Origin: a virus
Lineage: Duplodnaviria > Heunggongvirae > Uroviricota > Caudoviricetes
DNA length: 64,000 nt
Direction: 5' to 3' (one strand)
Virus record (IMG/VR): IMGVR_UViG_3300029736_000004
Shown here one piece after another: positions 718 through 63,546 of this stretch (position 1 is the first letter of the stretch; each line of letters opens with the position of its first letter). Below the pieces are notes generated by a model that did no database searches, had not been told where the DNA came from, and worked only from the letters and a program-made list of their open reading frames with translations. The translations under genes and the position numbers were made by a program.

Positions 718-1533
718 TTAATACCGGCATTCATAGCATGAGTATCTCCACTGTTCATGGTCAAAGCACCAGAATGCTTCCCTGGGCAGATTGTGTTTGT
801 TCATTAGCGCCAATACTTGCGTAGGCGTATTCGCGGGAATTTCTGGTAGTAAAGCCTTCGCCATTTCATGAACCAACATGGCATCAATGACGCCTAGCGT
901 ATGGCCTGCCTTAATCTTTAATGCAGTTTCAAGATAGCTCCTTTCCAGAGTTGTGCTTACTCTTGGCTTCGGCACCTCTTGTGGATGAGTATCCAGACGG
1001 TTGCCAGATTCATAGGCTACCCGCAGCCAGTGCATGAATGTTTCAGTAGACACACAACCGCAGTCCAGGTCGATTTTTTCGCGTTGTTGCCCCAGCCATT
1101 GCTCAAAATTTAACTTATTGGATGCTTCAAGAGCCTCTTCGTATTGTTTGCGCGAAATTATTTCCGTGTATTCCTCGCGATAAAGGTTACTTATCGGAAG
1201 CCTGACCTCAAGGCAAAAATTGCGCCCACACGGGCTTTTCGCTGGATCAGAGCCAAAAGCAAAGAAACCATATGATGGTTCACAGCAGTCCTCTCTAACC
1301 ATGCGACAATCGAGCATATCATCAGGCCACCCTCCACGCTTTGGCAGCTCCTGCACCAACAAGTCAATCAGCTTTATACTCTCACCGTCTTTGCAGGTTG
1401 CTAACGCTATTTGGGCAAGCTCCAATACCTCATCTGCCGTGTATCCAGCGCCGTGTCCATACATTTCGATGCGTGCAATAATCTCTGATATGCGGAATTT
1501 AGTGATTTTAGTCATAGTTTTATTTCCTTGCAT
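718..1533 (-). CDS. hypothetical protein (271 aa)
   Basis: Long ORF, AAAGG RBS upstream of ATG; no recognisable catalytic motif. Confidence 0.5.
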   Translation of the reverse strand: MQGNKTMTKITKFRISEIIARIEMYGHGAGYTADEVLELAQIALATCKDGESIKLIDLLVQELPKRGGWPDDMLDCRMVREDCCEPSYGFFAFGSDPAKSPCGRNFCLEVRLPISNLYREEYTEIISRKQYEEALEASNKLNFEQWLGQQREKIDLDCGCVSTETFMHWLRVAYESGNRLDTHPQEVPKPRVSTTLERSYLETALKIKAGHTLGVIDAMLVHEMAKALLPEIPANTPTQVLALMNKHNLPREAFWCFDHEQWRYSCYECRY

Positions 1534-1721
1534 GGTTCGCCTTTACGGCATACAGCTACACGGTCATTTCTTACATTAACCACTGTCACCGTTCCGTCAT
1601 CACATTGAATAACGATGAAAGGGTGTTCATTCTCTTTTGTGCAATGTTGCTGTTCTCCAGCCATTGCAGCCGGAGGAGCAAATAGCGCCAGAACAAATGC
1701 CAACCTTAAAAAATGCTTCAT
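1512..1721 (-). CDS. small secreted protein (signal peptide, Cys-containing)
   Basis: N-terminal hydrophobic signal MKHFLRLAFVLALFAPPAAMA followed by Cys-containing mature region. Confidence 0.45.
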   Translation of the reverse strand: MKHFLRLAFVLALFAPPAAMAGEQQHCTKENEHPFIVIQCDDGTVTVVNVRNDRVAVCRKGEPCKEIKL

Positions 1722-1728
1722 TTGGCCT

Positions 1729-1780
1729 TATCCGTTATCAAAATTGGAATATCCGTTATCACGAGCGTGATATCCGTTAT
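1729..1780. repeat. three direct repeats of (A)TATCCGTTAT at about 21-bp spacing
   Basis: Copies at 1729-1738, 1749-1759, 1770-1780, immediately upstream of the 1512..1721 gene start. Confidence 0.6.
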
Positions 1781-1962
1781 GAAGGGGGTAATAAAATTAC
1801 TTAGTAATACCCTCCTCCAGACTGAACGCCAGCGATAACCCAGGCTGCAAGAAGCGTAAATCCACTCCCAGCTTCACATTCAAGCGTTCCCCATTCAACA
1901 CCACCAGCCAACAAAACAAATAACAAACAAAAAAGTAATCCAAAATTTCTTTCTGTTTTTCA

Positions 1963-2262
1963 TTATGGTTGACTCCAGTTATCTTCAATAACAATGCTCA
2001 ATCTTTGTAGCCATTCTGCTAACTTCAGCATTGCTTCTCTTTCGCTTAAACCACGAGGGAAATCATCAAGCGATATTGTTGGCTTGAAATTCCCGAAATT
2101 ATCCATTTCAACGGTCAGATTTTGCTCCAGCACGGTATTCCTTACGCGGCTATTGTGCCGGAGCAAATATACTGAGCGCGATTTATTGGTTTTGTGGTCT
2201 AGCTTATATTCGGTAAGTATCATATGGCTTCTGCCATGATTATTACCGCGCCACATAATCAC
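1963..2262 (-). CDS. hypothetical protein (99 aa)
   Basis: ORF only; fits minus-strand gene series. Confidence 0.3.
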   Translation of the reverse strand: MIMWRGNNHGRSHMILTEYKLDHKTNKSRSVYLLRHNSRVRNTVLEQNLTVEMDNFGNFKPTISLDDFPRGLSEREAMLKLAEWLQRLSIVIEDNWSQP

Positions 2263-2268
2263 TCCGTG

Positions 2269-2670
2269 TTAATAAGAAAAGTAGACCGTTGCGACTCTGT
2301 TATATTGATCGAACGAAATAGCATTTACTTCATAGCTGGTGGGTATCTTTTCGCCAAGAATGTAACCAGGCCATGATTTCCACGGAATTTCTGCTCGTTC
2401 GTCATGCCACACTGCGCAACCAAGAGAACCGACCGTCTCTCCATACCGTTTTCCGCAAGTAACAAAGCCTATATTTGGCTTATCTTGCGTGACTGCTACA
2501 GTGGTAGTATTTGCGGATGCATTGATTGCAGTGCGTTGCTCCTGCTCGCTTGCGGCTGAGGCGCTAATTGCTGCCGTTGTTGCGGCGGTTGCAACAATAA
2601 CCGATGCATGTGATAAATGGCAGGCAGATAACATTGCCAGAAAAATAATAGTTCTCCGAAATTTAGCCAT
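2269..2670 (-). CDS. putative lipoprotein
   Basis: Start chosen at MAKFRR with AAAGGG RBS; signal peptide with LSAC lipobox-like motif. Confidence 0.45.
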   Translation of the reverse strand: MAKFRRTIIFLAMLSACHLSHASVIVATAATTAAISASAASEQEQRTAINASANTTTVAVTQDKPNIGFVTCGKRYGETVGSLGCAVWHDERAEIPWKSWPGYILGEKIPTSYEVNAISFDQYNRVATVYFSY

Positions 2671-2846
2671 TGATTTACCCTTTATTGCGAACATATTTAG
2701 CTGTGTGTTGCCGATGCGCGGAGATTCTCTTATATCAATTCCACGCGCTCTGCTAACGAGCAATCCAAATAATCATCCGGATGCTTGTCGGTGTTATTAA
2801 TGATGCGAATCCTCAAATCTTTTCACCTTTGAGGATAAGTTGCAGG

Positions 2847-3893
2847 TTAGCCACGGTTAACTCCTTGCTGTGTGGCGTCGAGTAATAAATCCCACAACCG
2901 CTGAGAGCAATTTCCGCATGTACAGCGTTGACCCACAACGTTTATCGCGTTGCTGATTTCCGGCGTTACCTGTTTAGGAACCATAACCCAACCATCCGGA
3001 GTTACCGGAAGCGAGAACGGCAGCACATCTCTGTGAACAAGTTTTTGCTGTGACAGGTTATCCAGAACTTTCTGTACTGCTGCATCACCGAATACACCAA
3101 GCGCATCTGCCATAACTCCTACAACCTGATAAGCCTCAGCGCATACCGTGGATAAACCATCCGGAATTACCGGAGAGTTGCCTGCCAGTCTACGCAAAAC
3201 AGTCTTAACCGCCTCAATACGGTCATCATCGCAACTTTCCAGCGTATCTATGCGATCGAGCATGATGATGGCGTTATCAATATCAGGATTGCCGGTCCAC
3301 TCATTACCGCGATTGGATTCGGCAGCCTGGTTGCCGCGTACTGGTTGATTCTCGGCTTTACCCTGTCTGTCGTCGCTGCATGAATGCCCTTCCAGCCAGA
3401 CCAGTGCTTGTCGCATGAAATACGCAATATGCTTGCCGTGGTAATCGTCTTCATCGATGTGAAAAGCGATACTGCGGATATATTCAATTGCGTTTTCAAT
3501 GGCCTCCGGCGTTATCGGTGCTGACATATTTTTATTTTGGAGTGCCAAGACGCGGCTGGCATCCTCTACGCCTTTAACTGCATCTGCGCAGTAGTTATAG
3601 CGATTGCATTCCACTAACTTCTGCTTGAGATTTTCAATTGCTTGTGCGACATCAGCCTGCAATTCCGGAACTGGCGGAGTGGCATATAACGGCACCCACT
3701 TTGGTGCTTTATCCCCGACCGAACGCTGATACCAGTCACCCGGTTTGTATTCATAAAAATCACCAACTGGCTCTGCTTCCAGAGATGCCAGCGCAATTTC
3801 ATAAGCACGGCGCTCAATATTGTCTCGCACGTCCAGACTGCCTATGCGCTCTTTGATTTCTTTAATCAGTTCTTTGTCGGTTAAAGTGGTCAT
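2847..3893 (-). CDS. hypothetical phage protein (348 aa)
   Basis: Long ORF, C-terminal CTCGNC motif; no confident family assignment. Confidence 0.5.
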   Translation of the reverse strand: MTTLTDKELIKEIKERIGSLDVRDNIERRAYEIALASLEAEPVGDFYEYKPGDWYQRSVGDKAPKWVPLYATPPVPELQADVAQAIENLKQKLVECNRYNYCADAVKGVEDASRVLALQNKNMSAPITPEAIENAIEYIRSIAFHIDEDDYHGKHIAYFMRQALVWLEGHSCSDDRQGKAENQPVRGNQAAESNRGNEWTGNPDIDNAIIMLDRIDTLESCDDDRIEAVKTVLRRLAGNSPVIPDGLSTVCAEAYQVVGVMADALGVFGDAAVQKVLDNLSQQKLVHRDVLPFSLPVTPDGWVMVPKQVTPEISNAINVVGQRCTCGNCSQRLWDLLLDATQQGVNRG

Positions 3894-3903
3894 AAATTAT
3901 GCC

Positions 3904-8082: not shown

Positions 8083-8113
8083 TGTTAGAAAATTAAAATC
8101 AACATTCTAACAC
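8083..8113. promoter_or_regulatory. operator-like inverted motif (site A)
   Basis: TGTTAGAAAATT-9 bp-ATTCTAACAC in the intergenic region upstream of the 7045..8040 gene. Confidence 0.5.
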
Positions 8114-12927: not shown

Positions 12928-12959
12928 GTGTTAGAAAATCAATTTTGATTTTCTAACAC
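12928..12959. promoter_or_regulatory. operator-like near-perfect palindrome (site B) in a divergent promoter region
   Basis: GTGTTAGAAAATCAA-TT-TTGATTTTCTAACAC between the minus-strand operon and the ref-like gene. Confidence 0.55.
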
Positions 12960-12961
12960 GT

Positions 12962-13579
12962 TTGATCAACCATAGCGGCGATGTAGACAAACCGGGTATT
13001 TCTATGAAGCAAAGCTATTGGGAGAAACAGACACAAAAAGCCCTGCAAAAACTGGCTGATCCGAAATGGCGGGAGGAACAAAGGGCAAAGCGTCTTCAGC
13101 AAGCTCAACGCCTGCAGCAGCGTGCGCGAGAAAAAGCCGCATCGCCTGAATATCGGCAAAAGAAAATTGAAAAAGCGAAGCAATATGAACAGCGAAGAAA
13201 AGAGAAGGCCGCTTCTGCTCCTGTCAAAAAAACTCGCGCGTCACGCGGCCTGAAAGGCAGAACACTCACAGCAGATGAGCGCCGGATACAAACTGCCATC
13301 GGTGCTCTCCCCTGCATTGCCTGCCATATGCACGGACAGCATAGCCCTGTGGTATCCCTGCACCACATCTTCGGAAGAACAGCAGAGAACGCGCATAAAT
13401 ACGTCCTCCCTTTGTGTAAATGGCACCATCAACACGCAGCGCCAGCAGAGATCCGCGAGCAATACCCCTGGTTGGTTCCTGTTCATGCTGATGGAAAAAT
13501 AGGCGGCAAAGCAGATTTCAGGCGGCACAATGCTGATGAAATGACGTTGTATCAGATGGTGACTGAATTAATAAATTAA
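12962..13579 (+). CDS. ref: Ref-like HNH endonuclease (recombination enhancement function family)
   Basis: Basic Lys/Arg-rich N-terminal half plus C-terminal His/Cys HNH-like core (CIACHMHG, SLHHIFGR, LPLCKWHH); TTG or internal ATG start. Confidence 0.5.
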   Translation: MINHSGDVDKPGISMKQSYWEKQTQKALQKLADPKWREEQRAKRLQQAQRLQQRAREKAASPEYRQKKIEKAKQYEQRRKEKAASAPVKKTRASRGLKGRTLTADERRIQTAIGALPCIACHMHGQHSPVVSLHHIFGRTAENAHKYVLPLCKWHHQHAAPAEIREQYPWLVPVHADGKIGGKADFRRHNADEMTLYQMVTELIN

Positions 13580-13590
13580 TTTTCTAACAT
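13578..13590. promoter_or_regulatory. operator-like half-site (site C)
   Basis: ATTTTCTAACA overlapping the ref stop, upstream of the immI-like region. Confidence 0.35.
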
Positions 13591-23861: not shown

Positions 23862-24535
23862 AACGCAGAGCGCAAATCGTAGGGACCAAACACCCTGCCG
23901 GACTTATGCGAGCGCAGGTCCGCATACTGCCTGACTGGAACGGTGTACCGGATGAAGACCTCCCATGGGCAGAGTATCAAATGCCTATCGGTAACGCCTT
24001 TACACCTACAGTCAGCGGCGATTTAGTCTGGGTAGAATTTCCTTATCTGGATGCTAAAGGCAGGATAGACACGCGCCGACCTTTAATCGTTGGTGCGGCG
24101 CAGGATGCCCCAGGAGGCGTACCAAATGTGCCTCCGGAAGCCTCCGGACAAGGAAGTGGATGGTCGCCAGAAGAAGTTGATGGTGCTCCTGCCCGCCCCC
24201 AGTTTTCGGCGACTGAAGATTTTGTTATTCACCGAAACAATATCCTTGAGGTCAGAACGGCTGGCGGTGGCTATGAAATAGCAAACACCGCCGCAGGATC
24301 AAGGATAGGGATGAACGAATCCGGCCAGATTTACATAATCGGCCCGGCGAATATAGTGCTTAATGCTGGAGGTGAGGTTAACGTCAAATCAAGCAGCAAA
24401 ACCAATGTATCCTCTGATGGAGACGTTAATGTAAAAGGCAGCAATGTAACCGTCGCCGCTGATGGTGATATAGCCCTGAAAGCTGGTGGCGCGCTAAAAG
24501 CAACAGCGAGCAATTTCTCCTTTGTGAAGGGATAG
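23858..24535 (+). CDS. baseplate central spike protein (gpV-like)
   Basis: N-terminal OB-fold-like region (GDLVWVEFPYLD) and C-terminal beta-helix repeats (VNVKSS..DGDVNVKGSNVTVAADGDIALKAGG). Confidence 0.5.
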   Translation: MKRRAQIVGTKHPAGLMRAQVRILPDWNGVPDEDLPWAEYQMPIGNAFTPTVSGDLVWVEFPYLDAKGRIDTRRPLIVGAAQDAPGGVPNVPPEASGQGSGWSPEEVDGAPARPQFSATEDFVIHRNNILEVRTAGGGYEIANTAAGSRIGMNESGQIYIIGPANIVLNAGGEVNVKSSSKTNVSSDGDVNVKGSNVTVAADGDIALKAGGALKATASNFSFVKG

Positions 24536-24543
24536 CAAAATGC

Positions 24544-24587
24544 AAAACTGTGTTAGATAATTGAGTTTTATTTTCTAACACAGTTTT
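24544..24587. promoter_or_regulatory. operator-like palindrome (site D)
   Basis: 13-bp perfect inverted arms AAAACTGTGTTAG / CTAACACAGTTTT separated by 18 bp, directly upstream of rdgC. Confidence 0.55.
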
Positions 24588-24594
24588 GCGAAAC

Positions 24595-25500
24595 ATGAGA
24601 TTAGTCGCCTTTAAAAACATATACGTCTATCGCCTTGCCCGCGAAATTAAACTGGACTCAACCACCGTTAGTGATGCCTTAAGCCAATTCACATTCACTC
24701 CATGCGCATCACAAGAAATGGCAAAAGTCGGATGGGTGCCGGTTCTGGCTGACAACCTGATCCATGAATACCACGGTTTTCTACTTCTCCAGCAACAGCG
24801 AGAAATTAAGCTCCTGCCCTCTCATGTCATTAAGGAGGAAGTGCAGAAAAAAGTGGAAAAGCTCGAAAATGAGCAATCTCGTAAGCTGAAGAAGTCGGAA
24901 AAAAACACCCTGAAGGATGAAGTTCTCCACTCTTTGTTGCCTCGCGCATTCACTCGCAAATCATTGTCGCGAATCCTTATTGATCGCGACAACTATCTGG
25001 TCTTCGTAGAAGCTTCCAGCGCCAGAAAAGCAGAAGAAATGCTGGCGCTCTTACGTAAATCACTTGGCAGCCTGCCAGTGATTCCATTCACGCCGATAGA
25101 ACCGCTCGAAATGACTATGACCGAATGGTTCAAGTCAACATTTCCTCAAGGCTTTAAAGCAGGCGAAGAAGCCATATTGAAATCGCTGTTCGATGACGGC
25201 GGCGCAGTTCGTTGCAAGAAAGTAGACCTACAGTCAGAGGAAATAATGACTCATATTGAAGCCGGAAAAGTTGCAACAACAGTTGCAATCAACTGGCAGG
25301 ACCGCGCGACCTTCAGGTTAAACGATGATATGAGCATCAAAGCACTGACGTTTTGCGATGATCTCTATGACCAGAACGATGACATCGACCGTGAAGATGT
25401 TGCCCAGCGATTTGATGCTGACTTCATTCTGTTCACAAGCGAATTATCCGCGATGTTTAGCTCGCTGGTGGAGGCCATTGGCGGTGAAGCAGAGCATTAA
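24595..25500 (+). CDS. rdgC: recombination-associated protein RdgC
   Basis: FKN..VYRL N-terminus, MAKVGWVP, and EVLHSLLPRAFTRKS...LALLRKSLGSLPV match RdgC throughout. Confidence 0.8.
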   Translation: MRLVAFKNIYVYRLAREIKLDSTTVSDALSQFTFTPCASQEMAKVGWVPVLADNLIHEYHGFLLLQQQREIKLLPSHVIKEEVQKKVEKLENEQSRKLKKSEKNTLKDEVLHSLLPRAFTRKSLSRILIDRDNYLVFVEASSARKAEEMLALLRKSLGSLPVIPFTPIEPLEMTMTEWFKSTFPQGFKAGEEAILKSLFDDGGAVRCKKVDLQSEEIMTHIEAGKVATTVAINWQDRATFRLNDDMSIKALTFCDDLYDQNDDIDREDVAQRFDADFILFTSELSAMFSSLVEAIGGEAEH

Positions 25501-26164
25501 TAACCGACCGCTGGCGGTGAGTCTTTGTGATTATACAGGGAATATGGTTTCCCCCTGGCTGGAACACGGCATTGATGCAGTCATTGTCGATCCGCAACAC
25601 CAGGAGTCCGGCAGCCAATTGATGGAGTCAGGTGCTGTACTCACACGTATCAGCGCAATTATTGACAGTGATGAGGTCTACAATTTCCTTCGGAAAAATT
25701 TGCACAGAGTTGTATTTTTAGCCGGTTTCCCTCCATGTACTGACCTGGCTGTATCTGGCGCACGCTGGTTCGCAGATAAAGCGAAAAAAGATCCGGTTTT
25801 CCAGTTCAAAGCAATGCAGGTTGTCTGGCAGTGTTACGACATTGCAAAGATGATTGGTTGCCCGTACATGATTGAAAACCCGGTCAGCCAAATATCGACA
25901 TTCTGGCGTAAACCTGATCACATATTCCATCCTTATCACTTCACTGCATATTGCAAGGAAGACAATTACACCAAAAAAACATGCCTGTGGAGCGGACAAG
26001 GATTCATCATGCCAACTCCGCGAATCGACGAGTCGTTAGGTGATCCAGACAACCGAATACACAAGGCACCGCCAGGACCTGAAAGAGCGAATTTTCGTAG
26101 CGCAACACCTTACGGTTTTGCAAGAGCTGTATTTGAAGCAAATAAGGAGGGAATCCGTGGCTGA
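25484..26164 (+). CDS. putative DNA methyltransferase (C5-cytosine-like PC and ENV-like motifs)
   Basis: GFPPCTDLAVSG and MIENPV motifs; GTG start with GGAGG RBS inside the rdgC 3-prime end; overlaps dam start. Confidence 0.45.
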   Translation: MKQSINNRPLAVSLCDYTGNMVSPWLEHGIDAVIVDPQHQESGSQLMESGAVLTRISAIIDSDEVYNFLRKNLHRVVFLAGFPPCTDLAVSGARWFADKAKKDPVFQFKAMQVVWQCYDIAKMIGCPYMIENPVSQISTFWRKPDHIFHPYHFTAYCKEDNYTKKTCLWSGQGFIMPTPRIDESLGDPDNRIHKAPPGPERANFRSATPYGFARAVFEANKEGIRG

Positions 26165-27074
26165 TATTGGTGCTAAATTTATTTCTTATAGCGACAATCA
26201 TCGTCCTGCGGCGGAAGCCACTATCAACCATATGCGACGTATTCGCTCGGAGGACGAATTTGATCGCCCCGTCTTTAAGTGGGTCGGCGGCAAATTTTCT
26301 GCACTGCCCATTATCTTCGAACACCTGCCCCACGGAAAACGGTTGATAGAACCTTTCGTTGGAGGTGGCGCTGTTTTCACTAATGCCGGATTTAAAAGCA
26401 ACCTGCTGAACGATATCAATAATGACCTGATTAACTTCTATCAGACATTGCAGCGTGAAGGGCATTCTCTTATCACACTGGCATATCGTTTTTTTCAGGA
26501 TTACAACTCTGCTGATGCATTTTTGAATGTTCGCAATGCATTCAACAATGGTGCTTATGATTCTCTTCACCATGCGGCGGCGTTCCTGTATCTCAATCGT
26601 CATTGTTTTAATGGCGTCACTCGCTATAACCGTAAAGGAGAGTTCAACGTCGGATATGGAAAGCAGAAATCTCCCTACTTCCCTCTCGCGGAAATGGAGG
26701 CGTTCCTGGATGACGATATTTCAAAGTATTCGGAGTTTGTGTCCGGCGATTTTGCTGGTGTAATTGAGGCTGCCGGGAATGATGATGTGATTTTCTGCGA
26801 TCCCCCCTATGAACCATTGCCTGACACTACCGGATTTACAAATTACTCAGGGCATAGCTTTAGGTTTGAAGATCAACAACGGCTGGTGTCACTGCTGGTG
26901 GATGCCCACAGACGCGGAGCGAAAATTGTGATAACAAACAGTGGTGCGCCTAACATTCGCGAACTTTACGTTGGCAATGGCTTCAAGGTGTATCCTATGC
27001 CATCCCGTCGCTCTGTATCCTGTAAAGCATCAACGCGAATGATAGCTAACGACATTATAGCCACGCTTAATTAA
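26157..27074 (+). CDS. dam: DNA adenine methyltransferase (Dam family)
   Basis: FKWVGGK and DPPY motifs; GTG start with AAGGAGG RBS. Confidence 0.8.
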   Translation: MADIGAKFISYSDNHRPAAEATINHMRRIRSEDEFDRPVFKWVGGKFSALPIIFEHLPHGKRLIEPFVGGGAVFTNAGFKSNLLNDINNDLINFYQTLQREGHSLITLAYRFFQDYNSADAFLNVRNAFNNGAYDSLHHAAAFLYLNRHCFNGVTRYNRKGEFNVGYGKQKSPYFPLAEMEAFLDDDISKYSEFVSGDFAGVIEAAGNDDVIFCDPPYEPLPDTTGFTNYSGHSFRFEDQQRLVSLLVDAHRRGAKIVITNSGAPNIRELYVGNGFKVYPMPSRRSVSCKASTRMIANDIIATLN

Positions 27075-27077
27075 GAA

Positions 27078-27098
27078 AAGCCCCATATGGGGCTTTTA
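27078..27098 (+). terminator. intrinsic terminator after the methyltransferase operon
   Basis: AGCCCCA-TA-TGGGGCT followed by TTTTAT. Confidence 0.5.
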
Positions 27099-27099
27099 T

Positions 27100-27205
27100 A
27101 ACATCAAACAAGCACCGTTACGGTACACTAATAACACCATTCTGGTACTAAAAAGGAACCAAAGCAGCCTCAAAATAACACATGGAACCAAAACGGTGTT
27201 ATTCC
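27100..27205. repeat. repeat cluster flanking the ParA/ParG operon (downstream side)
   Basis: AACACCATTCTGGTACTAAAAAGGAACCAAA and AGCCTCAAA..TGGAACCAAAACGGTGTT units shared with 28140-28375. Confidence 0.45.
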
Positions 27206-27209
27206 GGCG

Positions 27210-27497
27210 TCATTTTGTATCCTCAGACTCTGCAAGCATGAGGATAGCATGGCGGATCATATTCAATTTGCTGCGATTATGCTTTTTGCTTAACGCATCA
27301 AGTACCTGGTACTCGTATTCATTGAAGCCAACACGAATGGATTTAAAATCACGTGGGGCGTCCTTATCGAGCACTTTGTTGTCTTCTGGTTGCTCACCCG
27401 GCACCAAATCAGCTTTGCTGGCAAAAGCCTCAATTCGGCGTTCAAGATCGAGGTCTTTTACTTCGGGGGCTTTTACCGATTTACGAGGCTTAATCAC
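27210..27497 (-). CDS. ParG-like ribbon-helix-helix partition protein
   Basis: Small protein directly downstream of the ParA gene; C-terminal beta-strand/helix pattern IRVGFNEYEYQVLDALSKKHNRSKLNMIRHAIL. Confidence 0.5.
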   Translation of the reverse strand: MIKPRKSVKAPEVKDLDLERRIEAFASKADLVPGEQPEDNKVLDKDAPRDFKSIRVGFNEYEYQVLDALSKKHNRSKLNMIRHAILMLAESEDTK

Positions 27498-32625: not shown

Positions 32626-32642
32626 TTGTTCTAATGTTTTAT

Positions 32643-32704
32643 GTTAGAAAATTAAGATTAAAACATACTAACACAAGATTGTTAACGAAAATTATTTTTC
32701 TAAT
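32643..32704. promoter_or_regulatory. operator-like motifs (site E) in a divergent promoter region
   Basis: TGTTAGAAAATT-11 bp-ATACTAACAC plus TTTTCTAATG at 32695. Confidence 0.5.
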
Positions 32705-34611: not shown

Positions 34612-34902
34612 ATGGAGGAAAAAATGGCTGATATCAAAGTAACTATTACCCCACCAAATGCGACAGATAAAACTTTCACTGTCGAATCCGATCATCCGGA
34701 AATTGTGAGAGTTGATGGAACCACATGCACCGCAGTATCTGCTGGTACTGCGGTACTAACCATCAAAACTACAGATGGAAATAAAACCGCAACGTGCACT
34801 GTAACGGTTAATGAAGCCGTAGTAAGTGTCGACTCTGTCAGCGTTGATCCGTCAACCAAAGAAGTGACGGTAGGTGACAGCTTCACGGTCGGCGAAGCCT
34901 GA
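34612..34902 (+). CDS. Ig-like (Big_2-type) domain protein
   Basis: Thr/Val-rich beta-sandwich-like sequence; strong RBS. Confidence 0.45.
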   Translation: MEEKMADIKVTITPPNATDKTFTVESDHPEIVRVDGTTCTAVSAGTAVLTIKTTDGNKTATCTVTVNEAVVSVDSVSVDPSTKEVTVGDSFTVGEA

Positions 34903-62248: not shown

Positions 62249-62262
62249 ATTTTCTAACACAG
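62249..62262. promoter_or_regulatory. operator-like half-site (site F)
   Basis: ATTTTCTAACACAG, followed by a short palindrome ACAGTGT-N8-ACACTGT. Confidence 0.4.
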
Positions 62263-63390: not shown

Positions 63391-63448
63391 TGTTGCGATT
63401 GACTGTACAATAACCGTGCGGCGGGAATTTCATCGCTCGAAAATGTAT

Positions 63449-63546
63449 GTTAGAAAATTAAATTGATGTTTCTAATCAAGAATGTATGATTTATATCGTC
63501 ACTAAAAAACAGCATCTGATAAAAATTCTGTTGATCTTTCTAATGT
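63449..63546. promoter_or_regulatory. operator-like motifs (site G) upstream of the second immI-like module
   Basis: TGTTAGAAAATT-9 bp-TTTCTAATCA and TTTCTAATG at 63538. Confidence 0.5.

Follow-up and report, generated by a model that had tools for sequence, protein, structure and literature searches.

A probable D6-lineage version of the P1 hrdC-dmt operon, encoding a small predicted cytosine-5 DNA methylase

The window analysed here is a stretch of 64,000 nucleotides (nt) of the IMG/VR virus record IMGVR_UViG_3300029736_000004 (Caudoviricetes). We examined in it an operon of three genes, encoding a homologue of RdgC, a small protein resembling cytosine-5 (C5) DNA methylases and a Dam-family adenine methylase, which lies between a long inverted repeat and an intrinsic terminator:

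24542..24589, no strand assigned: inverted repeat, candidate C1-type operator (20-nt arms, one mismatch, 8-nt loop)
24595..25500, plus strand: rdgC/hrdC homologue, 301 amino acids (aa), ATG start
25484..26164, plus strand: small cytosine-5 DNA methylase-like protein, 226 aa, GTG start
26157..27074, plus strand: Dam-family N6-adenine DNA methylase, 305 aa, GTG start
27076..27101, plus strand: intrinsic terminator, a GC-rich hairpin (core GCCCC/GGGGC) flanked by AAAA on its 5' side and TTTTAT on its 3' side

The window represents an Escherichia coli phage-plasmid, a relative of phage P1 of the D6 type. The region shares 99.2% identity with the E. coli plasmid NZ_LR890273; of the 113 plasmid records that it matches, nearly all are about 90 kilobases (kb) long, non-mobilisable and from Escherichia or Salmonella. 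Its nucleotide identity to phage D6 (GenBank MF356679), a P1 relative, is 74.5%. D6 carries the same three genes (orf65-orf64-orf63) in the same order and with the same overlaps, that of 17 nt included, behind the same palindrome after a gene 5 homologue. The GenBank annotations of D6 name them RdgC family, 'putative DNA-cytosine methylase' and 'site-specific DNA-adenine methylase (similar to the C-terminal half of P1 dmt)'. The window differs from D6 in the sequence of the outer stem of the palindrome, which is still complementary, and in the gene after Dam: D6 has there the glutaminyl-tRNA synthetase gene (glnS), whereas positions 27075-27210 of the window hold only 135 nt with the terminator between Dam and a ParA-like gene.

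The P1 record gives an operator, Odmt (formerly Op68), and a promoter, Pdmt, followed by uhr, hrdC and dmt, and P1 Dmt (754 aa) is a fusion of PF00145 and PF02086. The window operon resembles this arrangement in that an RdgC homologue, 51% identical to P1 HrdC, is followed by cytosine-5 and Dam functions (the Dam protein shares 70% identity with the Dam half of P1 Dmt, residues 471-753), the genes overlap, the candidate repressor operator stands directly upstream and the module is carried by a phage-plasmid of the P1 group. In contrast to P1, the window operon has no uhr and follows baseplate gene 5 instead of upfC; its cytosine methylase is a separate 226-aa protein of a different, domain-poor family, whereas that of P1 forms the N-terminal, PF00145 half of the 754-aa fusion, and its operator is a symmetric pair of half-sites, unlike in sequence to the P1 17-mer ATTGCTCTAATAAATTT. 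An earlier note, made from the letters of this DNA, had called the combination of RdgC and methylases in one operon unusual, which the P1 uhr-hrdC-dmt order and the identical three-gene order of D6 contradict. The operon is a new member of a conserved module that is already annotated in P1 and D6, and the trio of RdgC, cytosine methylase and Dam is conserved within the P1 group. We consider it likely that the operon is the D6-lineage version of the P1 early operon hrdC-dmt, controlled by a repressor, with coupled translation and with orphan methylases that would mark phage DNA.

The open reading frame (ORF) listing and direct reading of the sequence gave overlaps of 17 nt between rdgC and the middle gene and of 8 nt between the middle gene and Dam. 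GGAGG lies 9 nt 5' of the GTG at 25484, a start that is backed by the starts of homologues (MKQ...), and AGGAGG lies 6 nt 5' of the GTG at 26157. Translational coupling is credible because of these overlaps and the good ribosome-binding sequence at each internal start, in agreement with what the earlier note had read. The upstream neighbour of rdgC is a baseplate gene; downstream of Dam lie a 95-aa ORF and a ParA-type ATPase. No restriction endonuclease was found among the genes neighbouring the operon, and the top PADLOC model for Dam is 'orphan methyltransferase' (models of Type II methylases also match), so that the description of the two enzymes as orphan methyltransferases stands.

The proposed ends of the operon were also analysed. 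Positions 27076-27097 form a perfect palindrome with 11-nt arms (AAAAGCCCCAT/ATGGGGCTTTT); in RNA, the stem GCCCC-AUAU-GGGGC is lengthened by A-U pairs and followed by UUUUAU, with a fold of -14.6 kcal/mol (z = -3.8). A simple terminator scan did not flag this hairpin, and the GC-rich stem-loop with its T run confirms the intrinsic terminator noticed earlier. Since AAAA precedes the hairpin and TTTTAT follows it, the hairpin, which separates the convergent Dam and par genes, could terminate transcription from either side.

The identities proposed for the first and third proteins were borne out by family searches. RdgC was matched by PF04381 (E 1.2e-100, 337 bits against a cut-off of 25, residues 6-298) and by the NCBIfam equivalog NF001462 (375.6, cut-off 330), and by no PADLOC model; by its family, it is predicted to be a recombination-associated DNA-binding protein and RecA modulator. 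Dam was matched by PF02086 (E 6e-54, 183.9 bits, cut-off 22) and TIGR00571 (232.1, cut-off 114.85), while its score of 224 with the E. coli Dam equivalog NF008152 is below that model's cut-off of 441. The motifs noticed earlier are all present in the translations: Dam contains FKWVGGK, which fits the N-terminal S-adenosylmethionine-binding motif (F/L)KW(A/V)GGK, and FCDPPYEP with the catalytic DPPY, and the PC- and ENV-like motifs of the middle protein are its FPPC and IENPV. The Dam half of P1 Dmt is described as GATC-specific (PMC12707154; also the P1 record), and the 70% identity to this half suggests that the window enzyme probably methylates GATC. Avoidance of GATC or CCWGG by the element was considered and rejected, neither being depleted (observed/expected 0.9 and 1.6, respectively).

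The Escherichia marmotae plasmid NZ_CP056699.1 has flanks 96.6% identical to the window, and at 1385-3673 a 762-aa fused C5 and Dam Dmt of the P1 type (67% identical to P1 Dmt) replaces the separate small methylase and Dam genes. The cytosine-methylase slot is filled by unrelated modules, which argues for their functional equivalence. We also observed that the central region of the NZ_CP056699.1 Dmt (about residues 245-395) has diverged from that of P1 Dmt, which suggests a different cytosine target.

The inverted repeat before rdgC has arms at 24542-24561 and 24570-24589, which are 95% complementary, with the outer 16 nt perfect. The 13-bp perfect palindrome described in the earlier note is present, and its size was underestimated. 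Two inverted half-sites, TGTTAGATAAT (24551-24561) and ATTTTCTAACA (24570-24580), lie within the arms. A strict 11-mer count, allowing one mismatch at most, gave 11 copies of the half-site TGTTAGAAAAT in the window, against 1.5 expected, and 0 of 100 shuffled sequences reached 11; three inverted pairs have an identical 19-nt offset and one has 21 nt. A more permissive pair search, in which each half could have up to 3 mismatches, was discarded, as it found as many pairs in shuffled as in real sequence. The same palindromic site was detected in D6 and 12 IMG/VR relatives.

The positions of these copies suggest the function. Mapped with D6 proteins, the half-sites of the window lie between ref and a divergent gene, between repL and icd-ant, between ppp and pdcB, in the divergent region between orf52 and the capsid gene, before rdgC and before repL. 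Two of them are listed here:

12929..12958, no strand assigned: second operator copy, TGTTAGAAAATCAATTTTGATTTTCTAACA, between the ref homologue and a divergent gene
62249..62259, minus strand: operator half-site 172 nt upstream of the homologue of repL (lytic replication)

Further TGTTAGAAAAT half-sites were noted at 8083-8112, 13579-13589, 32642-32673 and 63448-63458. In NZ_LR890273, a half-site pair precedes the lpa homologue and a half-site precedes c1 by 18 nt; in D6, half-sites precede c1 (by 28 nt), lpa and ref, and a pair precedes hrdC. Among the C1 operators annotated in the P1 record are those at dmt (Odmt) and ppp. In P1 biology, ref, kilA-repL, c4-icd-ant, lpa and c1/coi are also under C1 control. 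The TGTTAGAAAAT set in the window is probably the full set of early-gene operators of the phage-plasmid. Because the half-site positions match those of the P1 C1 operators, the palindrome is most likely a two-half-site operator of a C1-type prophage repressor, and the earlier description of the operon as operator-gated is probably right. The palindrome was also considered as a late promoter of the P1 type and rejected, as it bears no resemblance to the -22 elements found in the P1 record (AAGTGACT-like).

Several observations weigh against an operon that is switched by a repressor at this site. Binding of the repressor is predicted from the position of the sites. No sigma-70 promoter was found in 24536-24594 by consensus scan, and the scan detected a single promoter-like site, at 24330-24357 inside the baseplate gene (TTTACA-16-TATAGT, 10 of 12 matches to sigma-70, at the 3' end of this gene and about 240 nt 5' of rdgC), which may mean nothing, since one site per 3 kb is below the chance rate. 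Only 59 nt separate the late baseplate gene from rdgC, with no terminator between them, and late-operon read-through may contribute to the expression of the rdgC operon or even dominate it. In the lineage of the window, no recognisable ribosome-binding sequence precedes rdgC at 24586-24594 (GCGAAACATG). D6 has GGTGAG at the rdgC start, partly within the stem.

A possible -10 element, GATAAT, was read from the sequence at 24556-24561, with no -35 partner. The left half-site is TGTTAGATAAT in every lineage, by which GAAAAT becomes GATAAT, a better -10 element; we regard this improvement as a lead, not a result.

A rival explanation, which we find possible though doubtful, sees the inverted repeat primarily as an RNA element instead of an operator; located in the rdgC leader or at the 3' end of the late baseplate transcript, it would act as a stabiliser, weak terminator or translation block. 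Only 6 nt lie between the end of the baseplate gene and the stem, and 5 nt between the stem and the ATG of rdgC; in D6, part of the ribosome-binding sequence falls within the stem. The predicted RNA fold is strong (-25.2 kcal/mol, z = -5.7, with none of 200 shuffles as good), and the loop varies freely. The outer five pairs differ by lineage and remain complementary (GCAAAAC/GTTTTGC, CCATT/AATGG, CCAAT/ATTGG), and in one relative, a G-U pair would work only in the plus-strand RNA. In a gap-free alignment of three lineages, the covariation score was 0.216 against 0.084 in shuffles (0 of 500 reached it), with four pairs changed on both sides; in slid registers of the stem, pairing collapsed to about 45%. 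This covariation points to selection for base pairing, for example of an RNA hairpin in baseplate read-through transcripts, and is suggestive only, because three lineages contribute. Against a mainly RNA role, the window, D6 and the IMG/VR relatives all share the same inner 13 nt in each arm, which match the motif that recurs 11 times at regulatory positions, most other copies of this motif have no extended stem, and the stem is followed by no T run and so is no classical terminator. The operator and RNA roles can coexist, and the two explanations compete only over the main role. An Rfam search with the palindrome returned only a sub-threshold match to a microRNA hairpin, which is meaningless.

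The middle protein, described in the earlier note as a short methyltransferase, is predicted to be a divergent cytosine-5 methylase on the basis of its fold, its motifs and a tested homologue. It has a class I methylase fold nearest to known C5 methylases, with DNMT3 enzymes as the closest fold match. In the motif numbering of M.HhaI, the protein has FPPC85 as motif IV, IE131NP as motif VI, K164-K165 as motif VIII and R205-SATP as motif X; the acidic residue D36 comes after strand 2 and the pair I60-D61 after strand 3. C85, E131, P133, K164, T166 and W169 are invariant in 87 relatives with identity down to about 35%, and Lys165 is also conserved. PF00145 was the only recurring Pfam family among these relatives, sub-threshold in 8 of the 87 (best E 0.0039).

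The protein belongs to PHROG 757. A word-indexed search found 7,685 family proteins, with 2,526 representatives at 50% identity and members of about 215-236 aa, and the family was matched in 1,571 phage records, including 'dcm' of Tls and gp42 of phiKO2; nearly all of about 110 related plasmid records label the middle gene 'hypothetical protein'. Unusual members were also noted among P0217, P0173 and P0121, one with an intein (Hint and LAGLIDADG), one with a C-terminal HNH nuclease domain and one Dam-fused. P0121 is a 563-aa natural fusion of the small protein and Dam. Two viral proteins of 1,126 and 1,397 aa embed the small-methylase fold, one of them annotated as a helicase.

The tested homologue comes from T1-like phages. 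Bas06_0055 of phage KarlJaspers (711 bp), annotated as 'Dcm-like C5 cytosine methyltransferase', is 38% identical to the middle protein over the full length (E 2e-42, profile probability 100%) and likewise has no Pfam match. Its C82, E128, K175 and K176, at the positions given in the K42 paper, have C85, E131, K164 and K165 as counterparts. Phage K42 is 95.4% identical to KarlJaspers/Bas06, and the mutants of K42 that escape retron Ec86 all map to its 711-bp 'dcm' gene (bioRxiv 10.1101/2023.08.16.553469). Expression of K42 Dcm was toxic only with the retron present and increased 5-methylcytosine (5mC) on the multicopy single-stranded DNA (msDNA) of Ec86, as measured by liquid chromatography-mass spectrometry, while the C82A/E128A/K175A/K176A protein caused neither the toxicity nor the 5mC rise (10.1101/2023.08.16.553469). 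Evidence of 5mC formation in vivo thus exists for one enzyme of the family, which also triggers retron Ec86. These T1-like enzymes (Bas06_0055/K42 Dcm and Tls Dcm, all in PHROG 757) share the catalytic residues of the window protein and differ in setting: theirs is encoded alone among early genes of lytic phages, with Dam about 7 kb away, whereas the window gene, of predicted activity, is coupled to Dam and RdgC in a temperate phage-plasmid.

Other results speak against the assignment of the middle protein. Pfam and NCBIfam searches gave no match at E up to 0.1, sequence and profile searches against solved structures gave nothing relevant, and BLASTP and profile comparison detected no similarity to the C5 half of P1 Dmt, so that no relationship between the two cytosine-methylase modules can be detected from their sequences. 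Motif I reads LCDYTGNM, not FxGxG, with only G19 and the nearby C15 and D16 conserved. The K42 study assumed the CCWGG target from E. coli Dcm and used a dcm+ dam+ host (10.1101/2023.08.16.553469). No PADLOC model matched the middle protein, and weak matches to ornithine decarboxylase among the solved structures were taken as chance.

Compared with canonical C5 methylases (PF00145: M.HhaI, Dcm, DNMT3), the window protein is about 100 residues shorter, lies below all curated sequence thresholds and has LCDxTG, ENP, KK and RSATP in place of FxGxG, ENV, RxR and GN(A/S)V. Only about 35 residues separate K164/K165 from R205-P209, so that there is no target-recognition domain. This absence, the degenerate glycine-rich motif and the missing Pfam and NCBIfam matches would fit another explanation, namely that the middle protein is no independent DNA 5mC methylase: it may be inactive, act on another substrate (nucleotides or RNA) or use Dam as its DNA-recognition partner. 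The constant coupling to Dam in D6-like elements, the fusion in P0121 and the dam+ dcm+ host of the K42 experiments point the same way. We judge this explanation improbable, as the catalytic Cys and Glu are invariant in the 87 diverged relatives, which argues for an active enzyme, and the 5mC rise on msDNA required the four intact residues of the homologue. A very short recognition loop also suffices for the DNMT3 enzymes, whose fold is the nearest match.

The gene neighbourhood bears on the same question. Among 80 viral loci with the small protein, RdgC and Dam lie within 4 kb in 13, all D6-like; the other 67 have no Dam within this distance and encode the small protein in a setting of replication and nin-type early genes, and the enzyme therefore needs no adjacent Dam. 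The small methylase gene stands alone in Tls and in KarlJaspers, where Dam is about 7 kb off. The idea that the small methylase always travels with Dam was rejected on these counts.

In the proposed mechanism, a C1-type prophage repressor would bind the palindrome upstream of rdgC in the lysogen and keep the operon off. Upon induction or infection, the operon would be expressed, the three proteins would be made by coupled translation and transcription would stop at the 27076-27097 hairpin. The small methylase would form 5-methylcytosine by means of Cys85 and Glu131 with no classical target-recognition domain, and the two orphan methylases together would mark the replicating phage DNA.

By analogy to P1, likely uses of these marks would be to shield the DNA from restriction in new hosts and to control pac cleavage, through Dam, at a GATC-rich site in pacA. 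The roles in anti-restriction or packaging control put forward in the earlier note are plausible only by this analogy. P1 requires GATC methylation for pac cleavage, and in dam- hosts it comes to depend on dmt (PMC12707154). We detected five GATC sites in a stretch of about 170 bp inside pacA in D6 and NZ_LR890273, a cluster that looks like a counterpart of the Dam-regulated P1 pac site. The cluster, which lies outside the window with pacA, was noted at 34628-34800 of NZ_LR890273.1 and 3715-3900 of D6, with repeated AATGATCC and GGGATCAT contexts. The P1 hrdC and dmt genes are dispensable on ordinary hosts according to a CRISPR interference screen (PMC10695390), which weighs against the explanation proposed here and fits an accessory role.

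That both methylases are part of a restriction-modification system with its nuclease elsewhere on the element is very unlikely: Dam-family and C5 methylases are common in Type II systems and Dam does match PADLOC models of Type II methylases, but its best model is the orphan one, no nuclease gene adjoins the operon, D6 and P1 annotate none for the module, and a resident restriction-modification system would need the reverse of the apparent repression in the lysogen.

A more speculative proposal, to which we give little credence, combines two of the points above. Having no recognition domain of its own, the small methylase may not be a self-sufficient, sequence-specific enzyme; it may methylate cytosines with a very short or relaxed specificity or borrow its DNA recognition from the Dam protein to which it is coupled. 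The palindrome would at the same time be used twice, as a DNA operator and as an RNA hairpin silencing rdgC translation on late read-through transcripts.

Linking the middle gene to the tested K42 Dcm gives a predicted function to a gene that is mostly labelled 'hypothetical' in plasmid records and whose family, with its thousands of members, has no Pfam or NCBIfam model. If the link is right, retron Ec86 (Eco1) should be triggered when D6-like phage-plasmids are induced. With Dam alongside, the operon would also lend itself well to measuring which sequence is targeted by this family of methylases without a recognition domain.

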